Origin: a virus
DNA: 64,000 bases
IMG/VR virus record: IMGVR_UViG_3300025141_016157
Location: 64,001 to 128,000 of that record
Strand: one strand, 5' to 3'
Shown one piece after another: positions 1 to 56,539 of this stretch. Each line of letters begins with the position of its first letter. Position 1 is the stretch's first letter. The notes under the pieces were generated by a model. That model did no database searches, was not told the origin of the DNA, and saw only the letters and a program-made list of their open reading frames with translations. The position numbers were made by a program, and so were the translations under genes.

Positions 1-156
1 ACACTTACAGGATCTTCCGCAAGGAGCTCTAAGCGTCTTAATGAGTCAACTAAAAGAACTCTTGGATCATCCTCGAGACGGGTTGGCAGATCTTCTGCAA
101 CATCATCAAACAGCGAAGTTGATCGCTGGGCGGTGCTTGCTGGGATTAAAAACTAA
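1..156 (+). CDS. 3' end of probable prohead scaffold/core protein (partial)
   Basis: Frame 1 is open from base 1 to TAA at 154-156 (..KRLNESTKR..SEVDRWAVLAGIKN). It lies directly upstream of the capsid gene, the position of T4 gp22. Confidence 0.65.
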   Translation, partial: TLTGSSARSSKRLNESTKRTLGSSSRRVGRSSATSSNSEVDRWAVLAGIKN

Positions 157-198: not shown

Positions 199-2211
199 AT
201 GGCTAAGAAATTTACATTAGACCAGTTAACTGAGGGAATACGTCAAAGAGACGTAGGTCAGCAGTCTGCTCTTTTGACTGAGAAGTGGACCCGTACAGGT
301 CTTCTTCGAGGTATGAACGACACAGGTCGTGAGAATATGGCTCGCCTTCTTGAAAACCAGGCAGCACAGCTTCTTCGCGAGCAGTCTTCAATCGGTAACG
401 GTGCACGGGGCACCGCTTCATCGGGTGATCTTCGTGGTTTCACAAATATCGCCTTCCCAATCGTTCGTCGTGTATTCGGCGGTCTCGTTGCAAATGATCT
501 TGTTTCAATTCAGCCCATGAGCTTACCCTCTGGACTGCTTTTCTATCTTGATTACACATACGGAACAAATATTGGTGGAAGCTCAACAACAACTGGTGCT
601 GCTGGTACAGAAGATCAGCAGGATTATCGTAAGGGTCAATCAATCTACAACCTTCCAACTGGTAAGGGCGTAAGATCTGGATCAGATGCTATCGGTGGTC
701 AGTACAACCTTGCAGGTACGGGATACTCTAGAGTCAACACGCAGCTTGCTGCAGGTGAACTAGTCCTTCTTGCATCAGGTGCTATGGCACAGCAAACATC
801 ACTTCAGGGTGGTCAATACCTTATGTCAACAGGTTCTGACGGAAGACTTCTTCAGTTTGACCCACAGATCTGTACTCTAATTGAAGACAACCTTGATGCT
901 GATGGTAACCGTCAGGGTCTTGGTCTATTCCAGGCAATGCTTTGGGATGTCAACAATTTCCCTGCACAAGCTGATCTTACAGCTGTTAAGGAAATTGGTC
1001 TTTATGCTGGCGGCGCAGTTATAGGAACTGCAAGAACGGCAGCGGACCCGACGGGTGCCTCCGCTACTGCTGATGGTGAAGCACTTATCAACGGTATAGG
1101 AGTCAAGGTTCTCTCTGCATCTGATTCAGTTCAGGGTGGCCAGGTTGTTAATATTCGAAGGCTTAATCAGCTAGGAACTTACGATGGTAGCAAATTCACA
1201 CCTGATCCAATGGTTACTAGAAACACAGCCAATGCAGCACTGTTGACAATTATTTCTGGTACATTCAGACCTGACATGGCAACAACAGGCGTGTCGTCAT
1301 ATCACGGATTCTCAGGATCATATGTCCAGTCTCCAACACTTAATGTTGGCGGCGACGGTGATACCCTTACTATTCCGACCTTTGAGTCTAACTTTGGAAC
1401 AGGCGCAACAGCAGTTAATCCTGAAATTCCAGAAATTGACATCAAGATCGAGTCAATAGCTGTTACAGCTGAGACACGTAAGTTGAGAGCACGCTGGTCA
1501 CCAGAACTCGCACAGGACTTGAACGCTTACCACAGCCTTGACGCTGAGGTTGAGCTTACTCAGATCCTCTCTGAGCAGATTGCTCTAGAGCTTGATCGCG
1601 AGATTCTTAATGACCTTCTCACACAGGCAAAGGGTGCTAACTACTACTGGTCAAGAGCTCCGGGTAAGTTTGTTAACAAGAAGACAGGCGCTGTTCAGTC
1701 ACTTGCTAGCTCACTTCAAACTGGTCCTAACTTCACCGGTACAGTTCGTGAATGGTACGAGACTCTTGTTGAGACCATCATCGATGTTGCTAATGAGATT
1801 CACCGTAAGACCCTTCGTGGTTCTGCAAACTTCATCGTGGTTTCACCCGATGTTGCTACAATCTTTGAGGCTTCCGTCCTCTACAAGCCCAATTATAGCC
1901 TTGATGGCCAGGGTCAGGTCGGATCACCCTTCCAGCTTGGTGCAGCACCGATTGGTAGCTTGAGCAACCGTTTCACGGTCTATAAGGATCCATACTTCCC
2001 GCGCAACAAGGTTCTTGTTGGTTATAAGGGTGGTAGCTACCTTGAGACTGGTTACGTATACGCTCCTTACGTACCTCTCATTGTCACTCCTACTATCTTC
2101 GCACCAGAGGACTTCACACCCCGCAAGGGCGTGATGACTCGCTACGGTAAGAAGATGGTTCGTGCTGACTTCTACGGTACAGTTACATGTATGGATATGG
2201 ACGTTATCTAA
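199..2211 (+). CDS. gp23: Major capsid protein, T4 gp23-like, with large central insertion
   Basis: gp23 motifs: LLENQ, FPIVRR..VANDLVSIQPM..PSGLLFYL, TRKLRARWSPELAQDL.A.H.LDAE.EL, YAPYVPL, F.PRKGVMTRYG. AAGGA RBS upstream. Confidence 0.96.
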   Translation: MAKKFTLDQLTEGIRQRDVGQQSALLTEKWTRTGLLRGMNDTGRENMARLLENQAAQLLREQSSIGNGARGTASSGDLRGFTNIAFPIVRRVFGGLVANDLVSIQPMSLPSGLLFYLDYTYGTNIGGSSTTTGAAGTEDQQDYRKGQSIYNLPTGKGVRSGSDAIGGQYNLAGTGYSRVNTQLAAGELVLLASGAMAQQTSLQGGQYLMSTGSDGRLLQFDPQICTLIEDNLDADGNRQGLGLFQAMLWDVNNFPAQADLTAVKEIGLYAGGAVIGTARTAADPTGASATADGEALINGIGVKVLSASDSVQGGQVVNIRRLNQLGTYDGSKFTPDPMVTRNTANAALLTIISGTFRPDMATTGVSSYHGFSGSYVQSPTLNVGGDGDTLTIPTFESNFGTGATAVNPEIPEIDIKIESIAVTAETRKLRARWSPELAQDLNAYHSLDAEVELTQILSEQIALELDREILNDLLTQAKGANYYWSRAPGKFVNKKTGAVQSLASSLQTGPNFTGTVREWYETLVETIIDVANEIHRKTLRGSANFIVVSPDVATIFEASVLYKPNYSLDGQGQVGSPFQLGAAPIGSLSNRFTVYKDPYFPRNKVLVGYKGGSYLETGYVYAPYVPLIVTPTIFAPEDFTPRKGVMTRYGKKMVRADFYGTVTCMDMDVI

Positions 2212-26761: not shown

Positions 26762-28480
26762 ATGCCTACTAAGAAAGATAATTTTTTAAAAAGATATTTC
26801 ACACAAAGGTCTGATCTATCAGGACCAATTTCAAGATCTGGCGATGGCTTCGGTGCTGCTGGTGCTATGGGTAGTGGAGATGGGTATAAAGAAAAAATAG
26901 GAAGGGAAAAGATACCGTGGTATCTAAGCGACTTTAGAGGTCAACCATCTATGGCAGCGGACTCAGGATTCTCTTCAATAGTTATGTCAAGAGTAAATAA
27001 GGGAAGAGATGAAATTCACGATCCTAAGAGAATGTTTCCAGATCAAGATGTGAAAGATTCAGATGAGGAAGATAATTACTTATCAAGGGCTCAGCATAAA
27101 ATGAAAGAATCATCACAAAAATATTTTAATGAAAATCATATAGTAAAAAATTCCCAATATTCCCTATCAGAGTTGTCATCCCTTATGGGTGAAGATATTG
27201 ACTGGGAAAGGTTTATACCTGATCCCGTTGAAGACTTGGGATCAAGTATTTCAACAGGCATAAGTGATAACTGGAGATCATTAGTTCCCGACTCACTAGA
27301 AGATGAGGCCGAAGATGCTTACGAGTATGTATCAGATCTTTTATCACAGGCAGCCACCCAGGGAGAAGAGGCGTATGACTTACTTTCAGATAAGATAGAT
27401 ACTCTTACACAAGATTCTGAAACGTTTAGAGACGTTAAAGATATAGCAATGGAAGTCGGCAGAGACTTTATAGCACTAACTGCTGCTGGGATACCAGTAA
27501 TCGGAACACCTCTTGCCGCCGCTTATGTTTTATACAATCTATCAGAGCTAGACGAAGGGCAAGAGCAGGCAAGAAGGTCTATAGATCTACTCTTGACTAA
27601 TGGATCGTATGAAAATCTTGAAAATATGCAAAGAGTATCTGGCGATCTATTTGATGATTACATAGATCTTCTTCAGGCGTCGACATATCTTATTCCGTTT
27701 GTTGGAGTTGGAAGGGGAATTGTTGGGACAGCGGGAAAGCTTTTAAATAGAACAAAAGCTACAACAGCAACTGCTTTTTTAGGCCTAACTGGTTCAAGTG
27801 TTCTAAAGTCTGCTATAAAATCAGAAATACTGCTTAGTAATGTCTTTAAGATTGCAGCCAGGATGGCAAACTCAGACGTTGCTGACTCCCTAGGTTTAGA
27901 CAAAACTTACTTTTTTGATTCAATTGTTAAAATACCATCTACGCTAATAGTCATGGCAGATATTATAGAAGAGGCGATTAAGCAGTATGAATCATGGGAA
28001 CAGTCAGGATCACATTCACAATTTAGATTTAATCCCTCACCTCTTTCACTACAAAGAAGTGAAATTCAAAGTTCTGAAGAGAGGTTAGCAAGTGATGACT
28101 ATTTGACAGGTATCGAAGAGTGGATAAGGTCTGTTTCTAGAGACGTTACAGATTCAGTCCTGGGATCAGGACCAGATATAACAATTGAGGCAAAAAAAAT
28201 GAAAGATAATGAGAAGATATTAAGAGCATTTATTAGAGAGTCAATCTATCATACTACAAGAACTGAGCTAGAAGCAAAACCAGCCGGATGGGAGTACAGA
28301 GTACCACCCACATCAGATGAAGATGATACATCTGCAATGGGATCAGGAAAAGATCTTGTTAATTTTAAAACAGACATGGGATATGCAAGCTATCAGTCAA
28401 GACCAGAGAATATAAAAGAACAAGCGCTAAGACGAATTATTAGAAGAAAAATTAGAATTTCTGAGTCTAAAAAAAAGTAG
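26762..28480 (+). CDS. Hypothetical late protein with hydrophobic IP[VF][IV]G segments and internal tag-like helices
   Basis: 572 aa; ATATTTA upstream; ends at an A_AAA_AAG-TAG slippery site. Confidence 0.8.
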   Translation: MPTKKDNFLKRYFTQRSDLSGPISRSGDGFGAAGAMGSGDGYKEKIGREKIPWYLSDFRGQPSMAADSGFSSIVMSRVNKGRDEIHDPKRMFPDQDVKDSDEEDNYLSRAQHKMKESSQKYFNENHIVKNSQYSLSELSSLMGEDIDWERFIPDPVEDLGSSISTGISDNWRSLVPDSLEDEAEDAYEYVSDLLSQAATQGEEAYDLLSDKIDTLTQDSETFRDVKDIAMEVGRDFIALTAAGIPVIGTPLAAAYVLYNLSELDEGQEQARRSIDLLLTNGSYENLENMQRVSGDLFDDYIDLLQASTYLIPFVGVGRGIVGTAGKLLNRTKATTATAFLGLTGSSVLKSAIKSEILLSNVFKIAARMANSDVADSLGLDKTYFFDSIVKIPSTLIVMADIIEEAIKQYESWEQSGSHSQFRFNPSPLSLQRSEIQSSEERLASDDYLTGIEEWIRSVSRDVTDSVLGSGPDITIEAKKMKDNEKILRAFIRESIYHTTRTELEAKPAGWEYRVPPTSDEDDTSAMGSGKDLVNFKTDMGYASYQSRPENIKEQALRRIIRRKIRISESKKK

Positions 28481-51009: not shown

Positions 51010-52341
51010 ATGAAGATAACAGAGTCAAGAATCAGAAGAATTATAAGAGAAGAGCTTCTTCAGGAATCTAGTGACTTTAGATTTGACATTAACAAAAGTG
51101 TATATGTACTTCCTGATGCGCAGGTAGAGATTGAAAAAGCGGGGGATGGCTGGCTATTAAAGATCAGGAATTTACAAGCAGGACAATTTGGTTCAGTTCC
51201 TTTGAACATCTACGGACCATCCTACATGCTTGATTCGCTTGTACCACACGGAGCAGAGCCGGGCGATAAGCATCATAGGTTCTTGCAATCTGTAGGCTTT
51301 CCATTTGATGATCATCCTCCCTACGAAACCTGGGAGAATGAATTTCCCGGGGGCGCCAGAAGATTTATCACTGATGGTGACTACCTTGATCAGTACCTTG
51401 AAAGATTTCACAAAGATGAGGAATTTACTAGTGAGTTCAGGCTAAGCTACTTTGGCTACGCTCAGGATGTCTTACAGGGAATTCGCTTAACGCTTGATAG
51501 AATTGACAGCTATATACATAGCAATAGGGTTCAAAATATCATAGCTAGGGATCATGATGATTTTAAAGATAAGCTTGCAAAATTTTTCTCAATAAGTGAA
51601 ATAAACATTGTTGATAAGACAGCACGAGATACGGCTGGTTTCTATATGCCATCTGAACACAGTATCACAATTGCAGTTGCAAGAAACCCGCGTAAGGTGA
51701 CAAGGGAAACAACCTATCATGAATTTCTTCATCACTGGCAAGAAATTTTTGATGAACCTGAAAATTTTGATTGGAAGTTTCGTCCACTTGAACGTGAAGA
51801 TGAGACAGGCTTAGGGCAAGAAGATGAAACATATGAAGCTCTTTATTCACAACTAATGGCTGCCTCAAATATTCCAGTAAGAAGGTGGCTTAGGAACCTC
51901 GGAGCAAGCTATCTTAATCTTCCTACTAATTTTGACAGATATACTGTTAGAGAGTCAATGAGAAAAGCTGAAAGCTTTGAGATGTCATTAAGCGCTGATG
52001 ATAAGGGGGAGTGGAGTGGTTTTGATTCAGTCTTTAAGGCATTTTACCAGTTTCAGGAAAACCACTTTACAATGTCCCTAAGACGACTCTTTATGATCTT
52101 AAATAACTTAGGATATGATTTAGATTTAACTAGTGATAATAGCATTGAAAGATTTAAAGAGGGATTAAATTTATTTTTAAGATTTGGATTTCCACACAGC
52201 GTATATCTTAAAAACAGGGATTTGATTGCGTTACCTTTGTTTCTTAAGCCTACACCAAAGAATATAAATTTAATCACAAGAATAGGTGATACTCTTGCTT
52301 CTAATGAAATACATTCTGACAGTGGTACTGAAACTGTATAA
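51010..52341 (+). CDS. Zincin (HExxH) protein with N-terminal tag
   Basis: MKITESRIRRIIREELLQES; AGFY.P....I.I, TYHEFLHHWQ. Confidence 0.82.
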   Translation: MKITESRIRRIIREELLQESSDFRFDINKSVYVLPDAQVEIEKAGDGWLLKIRNLQAGQFGSVPLNIYGPSYMLDSLVPHGAEPGDKHHRFLQSVGFPFDDHPPYETWENEFPGGARRFITDGDYLDQYLERFHKDEEFTSEFRLSYFGYAQDVLQGIRLTLDRIDSYIHSNRVQNIIARDHDDFKDKLAKFFSISEINIVDKTARDTAGFYMPSEHSITIAVARNPRKVTRETTYHEFLHHWQEIFDEPENFDWKFRPLEREDETGLGQEDETYEALYSQLMAASNIPVRRWLRNLGASYLNLPTNFDRYTVRESMRKAESFEMSLSADDKGEWSGFDSVFKAFYQFQENHFTMSLRRLFMILNNLGYDLDLTSDNSIERFKEGLNLFLRFGFPHSVYLKNRDLIALPLFLKPTPKNINLITRIGDTLASNEIHSDSGTETV

Positions 52342-53315: not shown

Positions 53316-56300
53316 ATGAAGATAACAGAATCCAGAATCAGAAGAATCATAAGAGAAGAGCTTCTTAAAGAAGATAGCGAAGATACCGTTCTAGGAAAAA
53401 TGAGCTGGCCCATGGCGCCTGGTGTCTCAGACCCGTTTGGTGAACTACGATCCTCAAATCCCCCACCAGTTCTTTCAACATCAATGTGGTATGACCTCGA
53501 TGGTGACGCAATGCTATCGAGTCATAAGATTGAATCAAAGAAATTTATTGAACACCTTATGGATACTATAGAGCACAGAGGTGGAGTTGCAAACTCTGTT
53601 GCAAATGCTGGACACATCGCAGCTGTCTACAAGGAAATGGGTGTTGAGACGCGAATAGCTCCATACCCTGGGCCTAAGCATTGGGGTGCAGGAGATTATG
53701 AGTCATGGGGAGAGTTTCCAGGATCAGCAAGAAGTTTTTTTAAAAAGTATGACCCATGGGTTCTTGATGCGGACGAGATATTTCTCGTAACAGTTGATAA
53801 TACTTCTTACAGGGCTCCTGGCCAAAAAGTTACAGAGATTGAACCTGAAGATATGGAGATGGGAGTTGAATACGGAGGAACAACTGATCCCGCAGCTGGC
53901 AAGATTAAGCGAGCACTTAGCTCTCTACTTGGTGACCTTACGCTTCCTGCCCATTACGATCCTTCACCAGTTCAACTGACCGCTGCTAAATCATGGCTGT
54001 CTCAATGGCTTCCAGGAGGAAATCCATCTCCTGAAATGGCTAGGGCAATGGCAGCTACAAATCCATACAATGCTGTCTGGGAAACATTTCTAGGTCCAAT
54101 AAAAGAGTGTCTAAGCGGTCAAGCAGCTGCCAAAGAAGAAGCTACTCGAAGAGCATCAAAGCAGGATGATTTCTATTCTAGAGAAGGGGCAGACATAACC
54201 TTTGCTGGAGGAGCAACGTCAGAGGATACCCAGGCTGTTCTCAAACAAATGCAAAAAACTGGGGAGGCAGAAAAGATATCAGATGAATCAATTGGGACTT
54301 CTTCTGCTGGTCTGTGTGCATCAGCCAGAGCATCAGAGCTTATAGCATTGTTAGTTTTGCCATCTGGACAGTTTACTTTAGCCGGAAGGATTGCGCTAGC
54401 AGCTGGTCTCGTTCATCTTGCAAGAGGCTCTCACAGAGAGGCTATGTTTGAACTACTGCTTGGTGCATTTGAGATTGTAGCAGCAACCAAAGCGATTGTA
54501 AGATATACCGCAGTAGTTAAAAGTGCACTTAGGTCAGGAAAGCTTCCGGCAGATGACATTCTCGAAGAAATGATTAAAGCTGGAGTATTTGAAGAGCATG
54601 CTGATATAATAAGGCGGTTAGCAAGACAGCCAAAGATGGAGGAAGAAGTTCAAGCTATGCGCCAAGAGATGGCAAGAGTAATCGAGACAATGGATAGTAC
54701 AGATCCCTTGAAGCCTTATCTGGATGCATATGTTAGAGGAGCCAGTTCAGATGAGCTTAGGGGAATATACAAGGCTGCCAAGGCTGAGATTGAGTCTGGA
54801 GCTCGCTGGGACATTCACACGTCAACTAGACGTGCAGCTGATATTGATCCAGATGAGCTCGATGCGTGGCTAGAAAGACTTGAGGACTTACCGCTTACAT
54901 CATCTCCTGGATCTAGAAAAGCTGTAATAGACAAGTATATAGAATCTCAGATCAGTATAAATAGAGCTCTGGAAGCTGAACAGGCAACAGCAAGAGGTGC
55001 AGGTCGAGGGAAATCGACTCCGGAAAATCCATGGGGAAAGGGTCCTGAGCCTAAAGCAATTAGACCCGCAGGATCTAAGGCGCCATTAGCACAAACAGCC
55101 AATATGGGAAGACAGATTATTGATTTAGCATATGCCAAATTACGATCGATACCTGATGGTAAAATTTATAAGATTGCAAAATTCGAAAGAGGTCACTTCA
55201 GCGACGTTGATAGAATTGAAATTAGACTGGATGGTTTGTTTGATGTTGATGATATTGAAAAAATTGTTGACGACTCTCTCGGTGACTATCTAAACACGCT
55301 CACACCCCCGCAGGCATCAAGGTATAAGCAAGATGTTATTGAAGAAATCCAAAACCTTGACTTTGTAGTAGGACCAAGGACTCCTGACAGGGTGGGACAA
55401 TATGTCCAATCCGGACCTGGTCAAAGAGGCCAAGTCTGGGTTGAACCGTTTGACAAAGAAGAGTGGAAGGCTATAGTAGGAACCAATAGAGATCGACCAG
55501 ATTTTGAAGAAGCCGTTAAAAAAGCTTTTATCGACGCTCTAGATTCTGGAACAAAATTTGATTTGCCAGAGCAGGTGAGAAATACACTTTCTCATGAACT
55601 TGGTCACTGGATAGACCTCACTATCGAGGGAAATAAATATGATCACCTTATTGTAGATTCAAATGGAATTCCCATGAGGGAAATCGATGGCAAGCAGATG
55701 ACATTTGATCAAGCTGTCAAAGAAAGAAAAGTTAAAACAATAGAAGAATGGCTACAGGACCCGCCGGATATCTTTGGAGATTTCGTAACGCAACCCTGGC
55801 ATGGAAGAATTGGGGAGCTAGATGCTGAAATAACAAGAGGCGTAACAGATTTTCAAGATTCCCTAGAGGCATCAATTAAAAGAATTCGTGACCTTGATGA
55901 TCAATATAAGCTTCCCTGGGATATCTCTCCCAGAAAGCCGCCGCGAGATCAACAGCCAGTAGCATCTGATAGTCCGTCAGCATGGGATAGAAGAAGTACT
56001 ACCAAACACCCATCACAGACTACTCGCAGACAAGAGCCGAAAAAATGGGATGATGCAGAGACAAAGTCAGCAATGCACAAAGAAGAGATGGCAGAGATCG
56101 GCTTGGACGAACTAGATTATACATATCAAATATTGACTGATAAAGATCTATTTAGGGATATATTTGTCGGAGACTACTTTCCTATTGAGCCTAACCGTGG
56201 GTATCTTGATGATTATGGATGGGTAGGAAGTGCAGAAAATATCGTAGATCAAAAGATTGATGACGTTCTTTTCGAACCTGGCGGATTATGGGACTGGGCT

Positions 56301-56393
56301 AGAAAGGAAGCAGGAATAAACGTTGAGTACATTGACATGCAGGAGTCAGTTGTATATGTGTCTCGGTGGATGAAACTTGCAGGTATAAAATGA
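53316..56393 (+). CDS. Large multidomain protein: N-terminal tag, hydrophobic segment, zincin, C-terminal RWxxLAGIK
   Basis: MKITESRIRRIIREELLKE; LSHELGHWID...GELDAE; ends SRWMKLAGIK. Confidence 0.85.
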   Translation: MKITESRIRRIIREELLKEDSEDTVLGKMSWPMAPGVSDPFGELRSSNPPPVLSTSMWYDLDGDAMLSSHKIESKKFIEHLMDTIEHRGGVANSVANAGHIAAVYKEMGVETRIAPYPGPKHWGAGDYESWGEFPGSARSFFKKYDPWVLDADEIFLVTVDNTSYRAPGQKVTEIEPEDMEMGVEYGGTTDPAAGKIKRALSSLLGDLTLPAHYDPSPVQLTAAKSWLSQWLPGGNPSPEMARAMAATNPYNAVWETFLGPIKECLSGQAAAKEEATRRASKQDDFYSREGADITFAGGATSEDTQAVLKQMQKTGEAEKISDESIGTSSAGLCASARASELIALLVLPSGQFTLAGRIALAAGLVHLARGSHREAMFELLLGAFEIVAATKAIVRYTAVVKSALRSGKLPADDILEEMIKAGVFEEHADIIRRLARQPKMEEEVQAMRQEMARVIETMDSTDPLKPYLDAYVRGASSDELRGIYKAAKAEIESGARWDIHTSTRRAADIDPDELDAWLERLEDLPLTSSPGSRKAVIDKYIESQISINRALEAEQATARGAGRGKSTPENPWGKGPEPKAIRPAGSKAPLAQTANMGRQIIDLAYAKLRSIPDGKIYKIAKFERGHFSDVDRIEIRLDGLFDVDDIEKIVDDSLGDYLNTLTPPQASRYKQDVIEEIQNLDFVVGPRTPDRVGQYVQSGPGQRGQVWVEPFDKEEWKAIVGTNRDRPDFEEAVKKAFIDALDSGTKFDLPEQVRNTLSHELGHWIDLTIEGNKYDHLIVDSNGIPMREIDGKQMTFDQAVKERKVKTIEEWLQDPPDIFGDFVTQPWHGRIGELDAEITRGVTDFQDSLEASIKRIRDLDDQYKLPWDISPRKPPRDQQPVASDSPSAWDRRSTTKHPSQTTRRQEPKKWDDAETKSAMHKEEMAEIGLDELDYTYQILTDKDLFRDIFVGDYFPIEPNRGYLDDYGWVGSAENIVDQKIDDVLFEPGGLWDWARKEAGINVEYIDMQESVVYVSRWMKLAGIK

Positions 56394-56539
56394 AGATAAA
56401 AGGTGCCACCCAGGCTCACAAGGGTCATCTTGATTTCGAAGATGATGAAGAAATAGACATCGAATTTGATGATTACGATTCTCCATTCACTACAGACTTC
56501 TGTGAAATGTTTCCTGATCACCCGAAATGCAGAGATTAA
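56390..56539 (+). CDS. 49-aa acidic protein with C-x8-C tail (not in ORF track)
   Basis: ATGA overlap with the previous stop; MKIKGATQAHKGHLDFEDDEEIDIEFDDYDSPFTTDFCEMFPDHPKCRD. Confidence 0.6.
   Translation: MKIKGATQAHKGHLDFEDDEEIDIEFDDYDSPFTTDFCEMFPDHPKCRD

Follow-up and report, generated by a model that had tools for sequence, protein, structure and literature searches.

The enzymes enclosed by encapsulins carry short C-terminal cargo-loading peptides, which dock them inside an HK97-fold shell; scaffold, protease and DNA are all absent from these systems, and the peptide stays on. In Staphylococcus phage 80alpha, the scaffold protein and the CpmB protein of the satellite SaPI1 have in common a C-terminal helix-and-hook with an RIIK motif, which binds the N-arm of the capsid protein (PMC5644958). 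In herpesviruses, the tail of the scaffold protein attaches to the capsid protein, and cleavage at the M site takes it off (PMC12474303). In phage T4, the capsid targeting sequence of IPI-III loads unrelated proteins into the core (PMC3012670).

The phage studied here is an uncultured marine phage that, judging by its genes, is distantly related to T4. It is represented by a single contig of 160,346 bp with a G+C content of 36.9%, and the window, that is, the whole stretch of DNA that was analysed, comprises 64 kb of it (bases 64001-128000). Positions are those of the window unless the genome or another contig is named. The window contains the gene of a 1025-aa putative capsid cargo protein, P0001 (53316-56393, plus strand), recognised as an open reading frame with two relatives, P0005 and P0011. 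Its C-terminal tail resembles that of the product of the gene preceding the capsid gene.

As in the case of 80alpha and CpmB, a second, unrelated protein possesses the C-terminal peptide of the scaffold (about 16 residues in 80alpha), and here, as in 80alpha, an apparently amphipathic stretch leads into a short basic-hydrophobic end (..AGIK, compared with RIIK in 80alpha). The two systems differ in that they share no sequence homology, that a protease-type site precedes the tail here, and that binding is a prediction here. Besides, CpmB is a rival scaffold of the satellite that changes the capsid size, whereas P0001 belongs to the phage itself and is a large, enzyme-like accessory protein. The herpesvirus pair of scaffold (UL26.5) and protease precursor (UL26) is similar in that two proteins, one of them the scaffold, bear the C-terminal tail, with a maturation site shortly upstream at which the body is released from the shell. 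However, the herpesvirus genes are nested in frame and encode a 25-residue tail, whereas here the genes are separate and lie 56 kb apart, six residues separate the candidate cut from the motif, and the protease belongs to the T4 gp21 type. Like the T4 targeting sequence, the peptide is short, terminal, located beside an (L/I)xE site of the gp21 kind and attached to proteins with unrelated bodies, its removal being predicted in the present case; the N-terminal LAGI copies found in related phages have exactly the T4 format. The T4 sequence, however, is N-terminal only, while the LAGI tag of P0001 is C-terminal and stands alongside a different N-terminal tag, and the T4 sequence is not known to imitate the tail of gp22.

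A full-text literature search for the motif strings yielded nothing relevant. The loading principle is already known, while the LAGI tag itself is undescribed. What this locus contributes is the C-terminal copy on a large putative cargo protein, tagged at both ends and possessing an apparently swappable enzyme domain.

Genome organisation and head genes

The major capsid protein (670 aa; 199-2211, plus strand) was assigned as gp23-like by a Pfam match to PF07068 (E 2.6e-76). By this protein, the closest cultured relatives are Flavobacterium phage immuto, Microcystis phage Mel-JY01 and Rhodothermus phage RM378, with 40-48% identity. A search of the genes near the capsid gene against PHROGs revealed a T4-type portal (phrog_213) and a gp21-type head protease (phrog_207), and the cluster runs from the portal gene through a 284-aa gene, the gp21-like protease gene, four small genes and a 483-aa gene to the capsid gene, in the same order as T4 genes 20, 21, 22 and 23. 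The phage genome also encodes a DnaE-type polymerase and a GroEL homologue.

The N-terminal propeptide of the capsid protein is conserved and ends in LLE|NQ, with L51 and E52 invariant in 41 aligned sequences. Since the propeptide ends in this invariant pair, we infer that the protease of the clade probably keeps the (L/I)xE rule of T4. The capsid protein has 670 aa in this phage, 634-663 aa in the near clade and 525-596 aa in more distant relatives, so the near clade and this phage appear to carry an insertion of about 100 residues in the gp23 fold.

Scaffold protein

The 483-aa open reading frame (genome 62705-64156) starts 1.3 kb before the window, and its 3' end occupies positions 1-156 (plus strand), with the stop codon at 154-156, 42 nt 5' of the capsid gene. 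Its product consists of a conserved N-terminal helix, a long acidic middle part, a conserved C-terminal block and the tail. It contains 24 [LI]xE sites against the 9.5 expected from its composition, a 2.5-fold enrichment that fits a protein meant for shredding by a gp21-type protease. No Pfam or PHROG family matched it above the threshold. Comparison with T4 gp22 using hhalign gave an E-value of 9e-4 and a probability of 23%, the C-terminal block being colinear with the LTESQK region; by eye, the N-terminal helix also looks like the start of T4 gp22. The order of protease, scaffold and capsid genes recurs in immuto, Mel-JY01 and about 50 IMG/VR loci, and in every relative with the downstream DNA covered a capsid-sized open reading frame begins 15-45 nt 3' of the scaffold gene.

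The first-pass annotation, made from the bases of the window, had supposed that the gene upstream of the capsid gene encodes the scaffold. This is borne out by the gene order, the acidic, [LI]xE-rich body and the weak colinear similarity to gp22; because of this synteny, composition and weak homology, the 483-aa product is accepted here as a gp22-type scaffold.

Scaffold tails of related phages

The scaffold ends in the tail RWAVLAGIKN (124-153, plus strand). A back-translation search of IMG/VR revealed 402 relatives of the scaffold, and 79 of the best 80 of these 402 end in R[WFML]xxLA[GNK][IL] followed by 0-5 residues. In an alignment of 41 scaffolds, the tail residues R474, L478 and A479 are among just twelve invariant columns. 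The scaffolds of the cultured phages end in RWQKLAGIIK (immuto), RMKKLAGIVK (Mel-JY01) and RIKRLAGL (RM378), while the true T4-like phages differ, gp22 of T4 ending in VASRF and gp22 of cyanophage S-SSM7 in LGRMK. The ..VASRF end of T4 gp22 (gene 22, L099:8118-8927) matches the ..V-S-R-F with which many tails of far T4 relatives begin (..VSRFKKLAGII), as if T4 gp22 had kept the first half of such a tail; the KLAGI part is absent.

A protease-type [ILVM]xE triplet lies within 16 residues upstream of the motif in 66 of 71 unique scaffold tails, and in 54 of the 71 its spacing is exactly E-x6-R. The scaffold of this phage has N-S-E at x2 spacing, which is not the canonical [ILVM]xE, a point counted against the interpretation preferred below; x2 is the spacing of its own clade. 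These features suggest that R[WFM]xxLAG[IL] serves gp22-type scaffolds as a docking tail throughout a very large clade of far T4 relatives, a reading we hold to be probable.

Protein P0001

The C-terminal tail of P0001, RWMKLAGIK (56364-56390, plus strand), directly precedes the stop codon (56391-56393) and is kept in both P0005 and P0011. Upstream of it lies M-Q-E (56337-56345, plus strand), a candidate head-protease site with a predicted cut after Glu1010. This site, M-Q-E|S at residues 1008-1011, is conserved in P0005, and six residues separate its Glu from the tail Arg. The shared RWxxLAGIK end reported in the first-pass annotation is present as described, with MQE|S-x5-RWMKLAGIK on the 1025-aa protein and RWAVLAGIKN on the product of the gene before the capsid gene.

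The same annotation had P0001 tagged at both ends, and the N-terminus agrees with this as well as the C-terminal LAGI tail does. Residues 1-19 (53316-53372, plus strand) form a putative amphipathic helical tag ending in L-K-E|D, and 19 of the first 22 residues are identical to the start of a neighbouring 443-aa protein (at 51010), the remainder of the two proteins being unrelated. Several more proteins encoded by the genome, among them two small ones beside the protease, start with similar helices. A tblastn search of 50,697 phage records with the N-terminal tag matched immuto phages alone. A 572-aa protein (26762-28480) ends in a LRRIIRRKIRISE stretch, and this end looks like a helical tag of the N-terminal type placed at the C-terminus.

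Pfam and PHROGs gave no match above the threshold for P0001 or for the 174-aa protein described below. The HELGH sequence of P0001 (HExxH, residues 760-764; 55593-55607, plus strand) may be a zincin-type metallopeptidase site; the Pfam family Zincin_1 matched below threshold (E 0.04-0.2, 12-14 bits against a cut-off of 22.4). Internal [LI]xE triplets are ordinary in number (12 against 11.8 expected), which was counted against the interpretation preferred below. An AlphaFold2 model of residues 590-1025, built from an alignment of two sequences, had a mean pLDDT of 47.7, too low for a fold search, and placed a helix at 1008-1021, followed by four non-helical end residues, at a local pLDDT below 40. 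Residues 330-395 (54303-54500) contain a moderately hydrophobic helical stretch, with Kyte-Doolittle values of up to 1.66 over 19 residues. It is conserved in P0011 and may, like segments of ejection proteins, be membrane-active.

A 49-aa open reading frame (56390-56539) overlaps the stop codon of P0001 (ATGA). Its last 20 or so residues resemble the end of a 259-aa gene that follows the P0005 gene (L005:5630-6409; E 2e-5) and opens with an MKITESRIRR tag. The 49-aa frame appears to be what a deletion has left of a further tagged cargo gene.

Relatives of P0001

In public protein sets of 5.8 billion and 1.8 billion proteins, two relatives of P0001 were found. P0005 is 74% identical to it and ends in M-Q-E-S, five residues and RWMQLAGIN; over the last 78 codons the two genes show 16 synonymous and 7 non-synonymous differences. 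P0011, encoded on a Tara Oceans contig (L224:1713-5012), is the positional orthologue of P0001. It has in common with P0001 the N-terminal tag and residues 1-497, with 49% identity, while its C-terminal portion of about 600 residues is unrelated to that of P0001 (best BLASTP E-value 2.0). The top language-model match of this half scored 0.95, the ten best named matches were all kinase families, and a sub-threshold Pfam match to ABC1 covers an HxN..DFG stretch. The C-terminal half of P0011 looks like a protein-kinase-like domain standing in place of the HExxH domain.

P0011 ends in L-E-E, five residues and RWKLLAGIS, the candidate site being L-E-E|G. The tail is kept although the adjoining domain has been swapped, which indicates that it is modular. 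Taken together, P0001 and P0011 look like variants of a polymorphic design with swappable effectors.

Conservation of the tail codons as a ribosome-binding site of an overlapping next gene was also considered and rejected. The DNA 3' of the stop codon differs in all three homologues: in the window a start codon overlaps the stop, in P0005 a full tagged gene follows at once, and in P0011 there is a 31-nt spacer. As the downstream context varies in this way, an overlapping ribosome-binding site cannot explain the conservation of the tail.

Occurrence of the motif on other proteins

The first-pass annotation had proposed a scan of the full genome for the motif. A six-frame scan of all 160,346 bp with R[WMFYL]xxLAG[ILVM] gave three matches, each of them terminal: the C-termini of the scaffold and of P0001 and the N-terminus of a 174-aa protein. 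The latter (L002:12256-12780; genome 140256-140780, outside the window) is highly charged, contains repeats and starts with DRLAQLAGL followed by L-N-E|A, and its homologue in a 141-kb relative (G001:102461) has the same start. It is probably an internal head protein with an N-terminal LAGI tag.

An exact scan of IMG/VR for RMQKLAGI resulted in 81 matches, 66 of which lie at the extreme C-terminus, 13 at the N-terminus and about two elsewhere. The carriers of the C-terminal matches have mostly scaffold signatures. All 13 N-terminal copies are followed by [IL]xE within 2-6 residues after the motif. Phage immuto has three copies of the motif; one is on its scaffold, and the other two lie close to the N-terminal ends of small proteins, with I-T-E|S directly after them.

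Three contigs (L115, L117 and L174) encode non-scaffold proteins of 221-285 residues with an N-terminal helix of the LRxxIRE type and an xNE|SF-x-RMQKLAGIIK C-terminal end, which is the same two-ended design as that of P0001. Two stretches of unrelated IMG/VR contigs (L117:5137-13351 and L174:1811-9978) are dense in small proteins that start with LRQLIRE-type helices or with [RH]MQKLAF/G. A 177-aa protein (L117:10614-11147) has HMQKLAGI, then I-S-E|S and a 17-residue extension. Fourteen long related contigs carry the motif on the scaffold alone. This indicates that cargo use of the tail is sporadic, and it was also weighed against the interpretation preferred below.

Significance of the shared tail

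When the C-terminal 8-mers of all pairs of proteins of this genome were compared, the scaffold and P0001 formed the best pair, with a score of 31 against a null value of 27.8 +/- 2.5 and a null maximum of 37. The score falls inside the null range, so the similarity within the single genome is not beyond chance, which was likewise held against the preferred interpretation. The scaffold family as a whole was represented by an 18-column profile of 57 scaffold tails, from which the tails of the phage's own clade were left out. With this profile of distant scaffolds, the tail of P0001 scored 14.5 bits, against 7.3 bits for the phage's own scaffold tail. Of the 49,164 windows in the proteome it was the best one outside the scaffold, and 14.5 bits was not reached by any of 2x10^7 random 18-mers of the same composition. 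The match of the P0001 tail to the scaffold family is beyond chance.

The P0001 tail is nearer to distant scaffold tails than to that of its own phage, a further point that counts against the preferred explanation. It has the E-x6-R spacing that is modal in the distant scaffold clades, and in comparison with the phage's own scaffold tail, four of seven conserved codons differ at synonymous positions. Since its spacing is x6 rather than x2 and the codons differ in this way, it is not a recent copy of the 3' end of the phage's own scaffold gene. The earlier proposal of a docking signal copied from the scaffold thus stands as regards a conserved, modular, terminal peptide beside a head-protease-type site; as regards recent copying, the spacing and the codons speak against it.

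Proposed role of the tail and alternative explanations

The tail of P0001 is, in our opinion, rather likely to be a removable tag that loads the protein into the prohead by mimicking the docking tail of the scaffold. The motif, its strictly terminal position, its conservation and modularity and the flanking protease-type sites are read directly from the sequence. We favour a loading tag because the peptide is terminal, flanked by protease-type sites, universal on the scaffold and sporadic on unrelated accessory proteins, and because it survives a domain swap. The scaffold copy is read as ancestral and the cargo copies as derived.

The events proposed for P0001, namely binding, cleavage, packaging and ejection, we infer from these features. 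During prohead assembly, the tail would occupy the receptor of the scaffold tail, and P0001 would be built into the prohead. The receptor would most likely be the inner face or the N-terminal propeptide of the gp23-like capsid protein, which is favoured because of the analogy with 80alpha and the herpesviruses. Two cuts by the gp21-like head protease would follow, one at M-Q-E|S, six residues before the tail Arg, and one at L-K-E|D, behind the N-terminal helix. This cutting would free an untagged body of about 990 residues inside the head, which would leave with the DNA at infection. A complex prediction for the capsid protein (41-row alignment) with P0001 residues 981-1025, run without controls, scored 0.01 against a mark of 0.32 and is taken neither for nor against binding. 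When tail positions +1 and +6 were assessed for covariation with the columns of the capsid alignment in 41 pairs, the propeptide accounted for 6 and 8 of the top 40 columns, respectively, with 4 expected, a weak signal confounded by phylogeny. A search of the literature on the cultured relatives found no virion proteomics.

The tail may also be a prohead-loading tag whose receptor is the scaffold core, for example its conserved N-terminal helix, or the portal, with the cargo co-polymerising with the core; we consider this possible but unlikely. According to the T4 literature, targeting sequences bring proteins into the scaffolding core (PMC3012670), the N-terminus of the scaffold is a second strongly conserved block and could receive the tail, and the tail residues covary only weakly with the capsid columns. 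However, in 80alpha and the herpesviruses, where the contact has been solved or mapped, the extreme C-terminus of the scaffold touches the capsid protein. A markedly smaller probability is given to the motif being an exosite for the gp21-like head protease, which would place nearby [ILVM]xE sites for cutting and have no loading role. The fixed short distance to the cut site would agree with it, as 54 of the 71 scaffold tails keep E-x6-R and each of the 13 N-terminal tags has LAGI-x(1-4)-E. But about 24 other [LI]xE sites of the scaffold have no motif nearby, an exosite need not be at the extreme terminus, where about 79 of the 81 copies are located, and it would not explain the gain of the motif by unrelated accessory proteins.

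It is still less probable, and indeed very unlikely, that the tail has a role outside the head common to the scaffold and P0001, such as self-association or the binding of a host factor or of the phage's GroEL-like chaperonin. The genome does encode a GroEL homologue and the binding of the tail to the capsid is itself predicted, but the motif is universal on the gene between those of the protease and the capsid protein and is split from the body by a site of the head-protease type. The resemblance of the two C-termini by chance or composition is hardly credible: the 8-mer score within the genome does lie in the null range, but the profile was not reached by any random peptide, the tail is conserved in P0005 and P0011 across the domain swap, and the E-x6-R spacing is identical.

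Biological implications

If the loading-tag reading is correct and the tail is a loading signal, the packaged and probably injected proteins of this clade of marine T4-like phages, which is very large and for the most part uncultured, would be predictable from their terminal motifs. To our knowledge, the way in which gp22-type scaffolds grip the shell has not been worked out, even in T4, and the tail would provide a clue to this. It would also offer a natural short C-terminal tag for loading foreign proteins into T4-type heads. The exchange of a zincin-like for a kinase-like domain behind a constant tail suggests an arms-race effector delivered with the DNA.

A broader picture can be drawn tentatively, and we regard it in its entirety as doubtful. 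Distant marine T4 relatives might use a two-channel capsid-loading code, consisting of the scaffold-tail mimic R[WFM]xxLAG[IL] at either terminus and an N-terminal amphipathic helix of the LRxIIxEE type, each with an (I/L/V/M)xE site next to it for its removal. Under this scheme, P0001 and its relatives might be a polymorphic ejected effector, in which a constant delivery module of about 490 residues, possibly membrane-active, is combined with swappable enzymes, zincin-like here and protein-kinase-like in P0011, both tags holding the protein in the prohead. If such a two-channel code exists, the injected proteome of thousands of uncultured phages would be readable from sequence alone.
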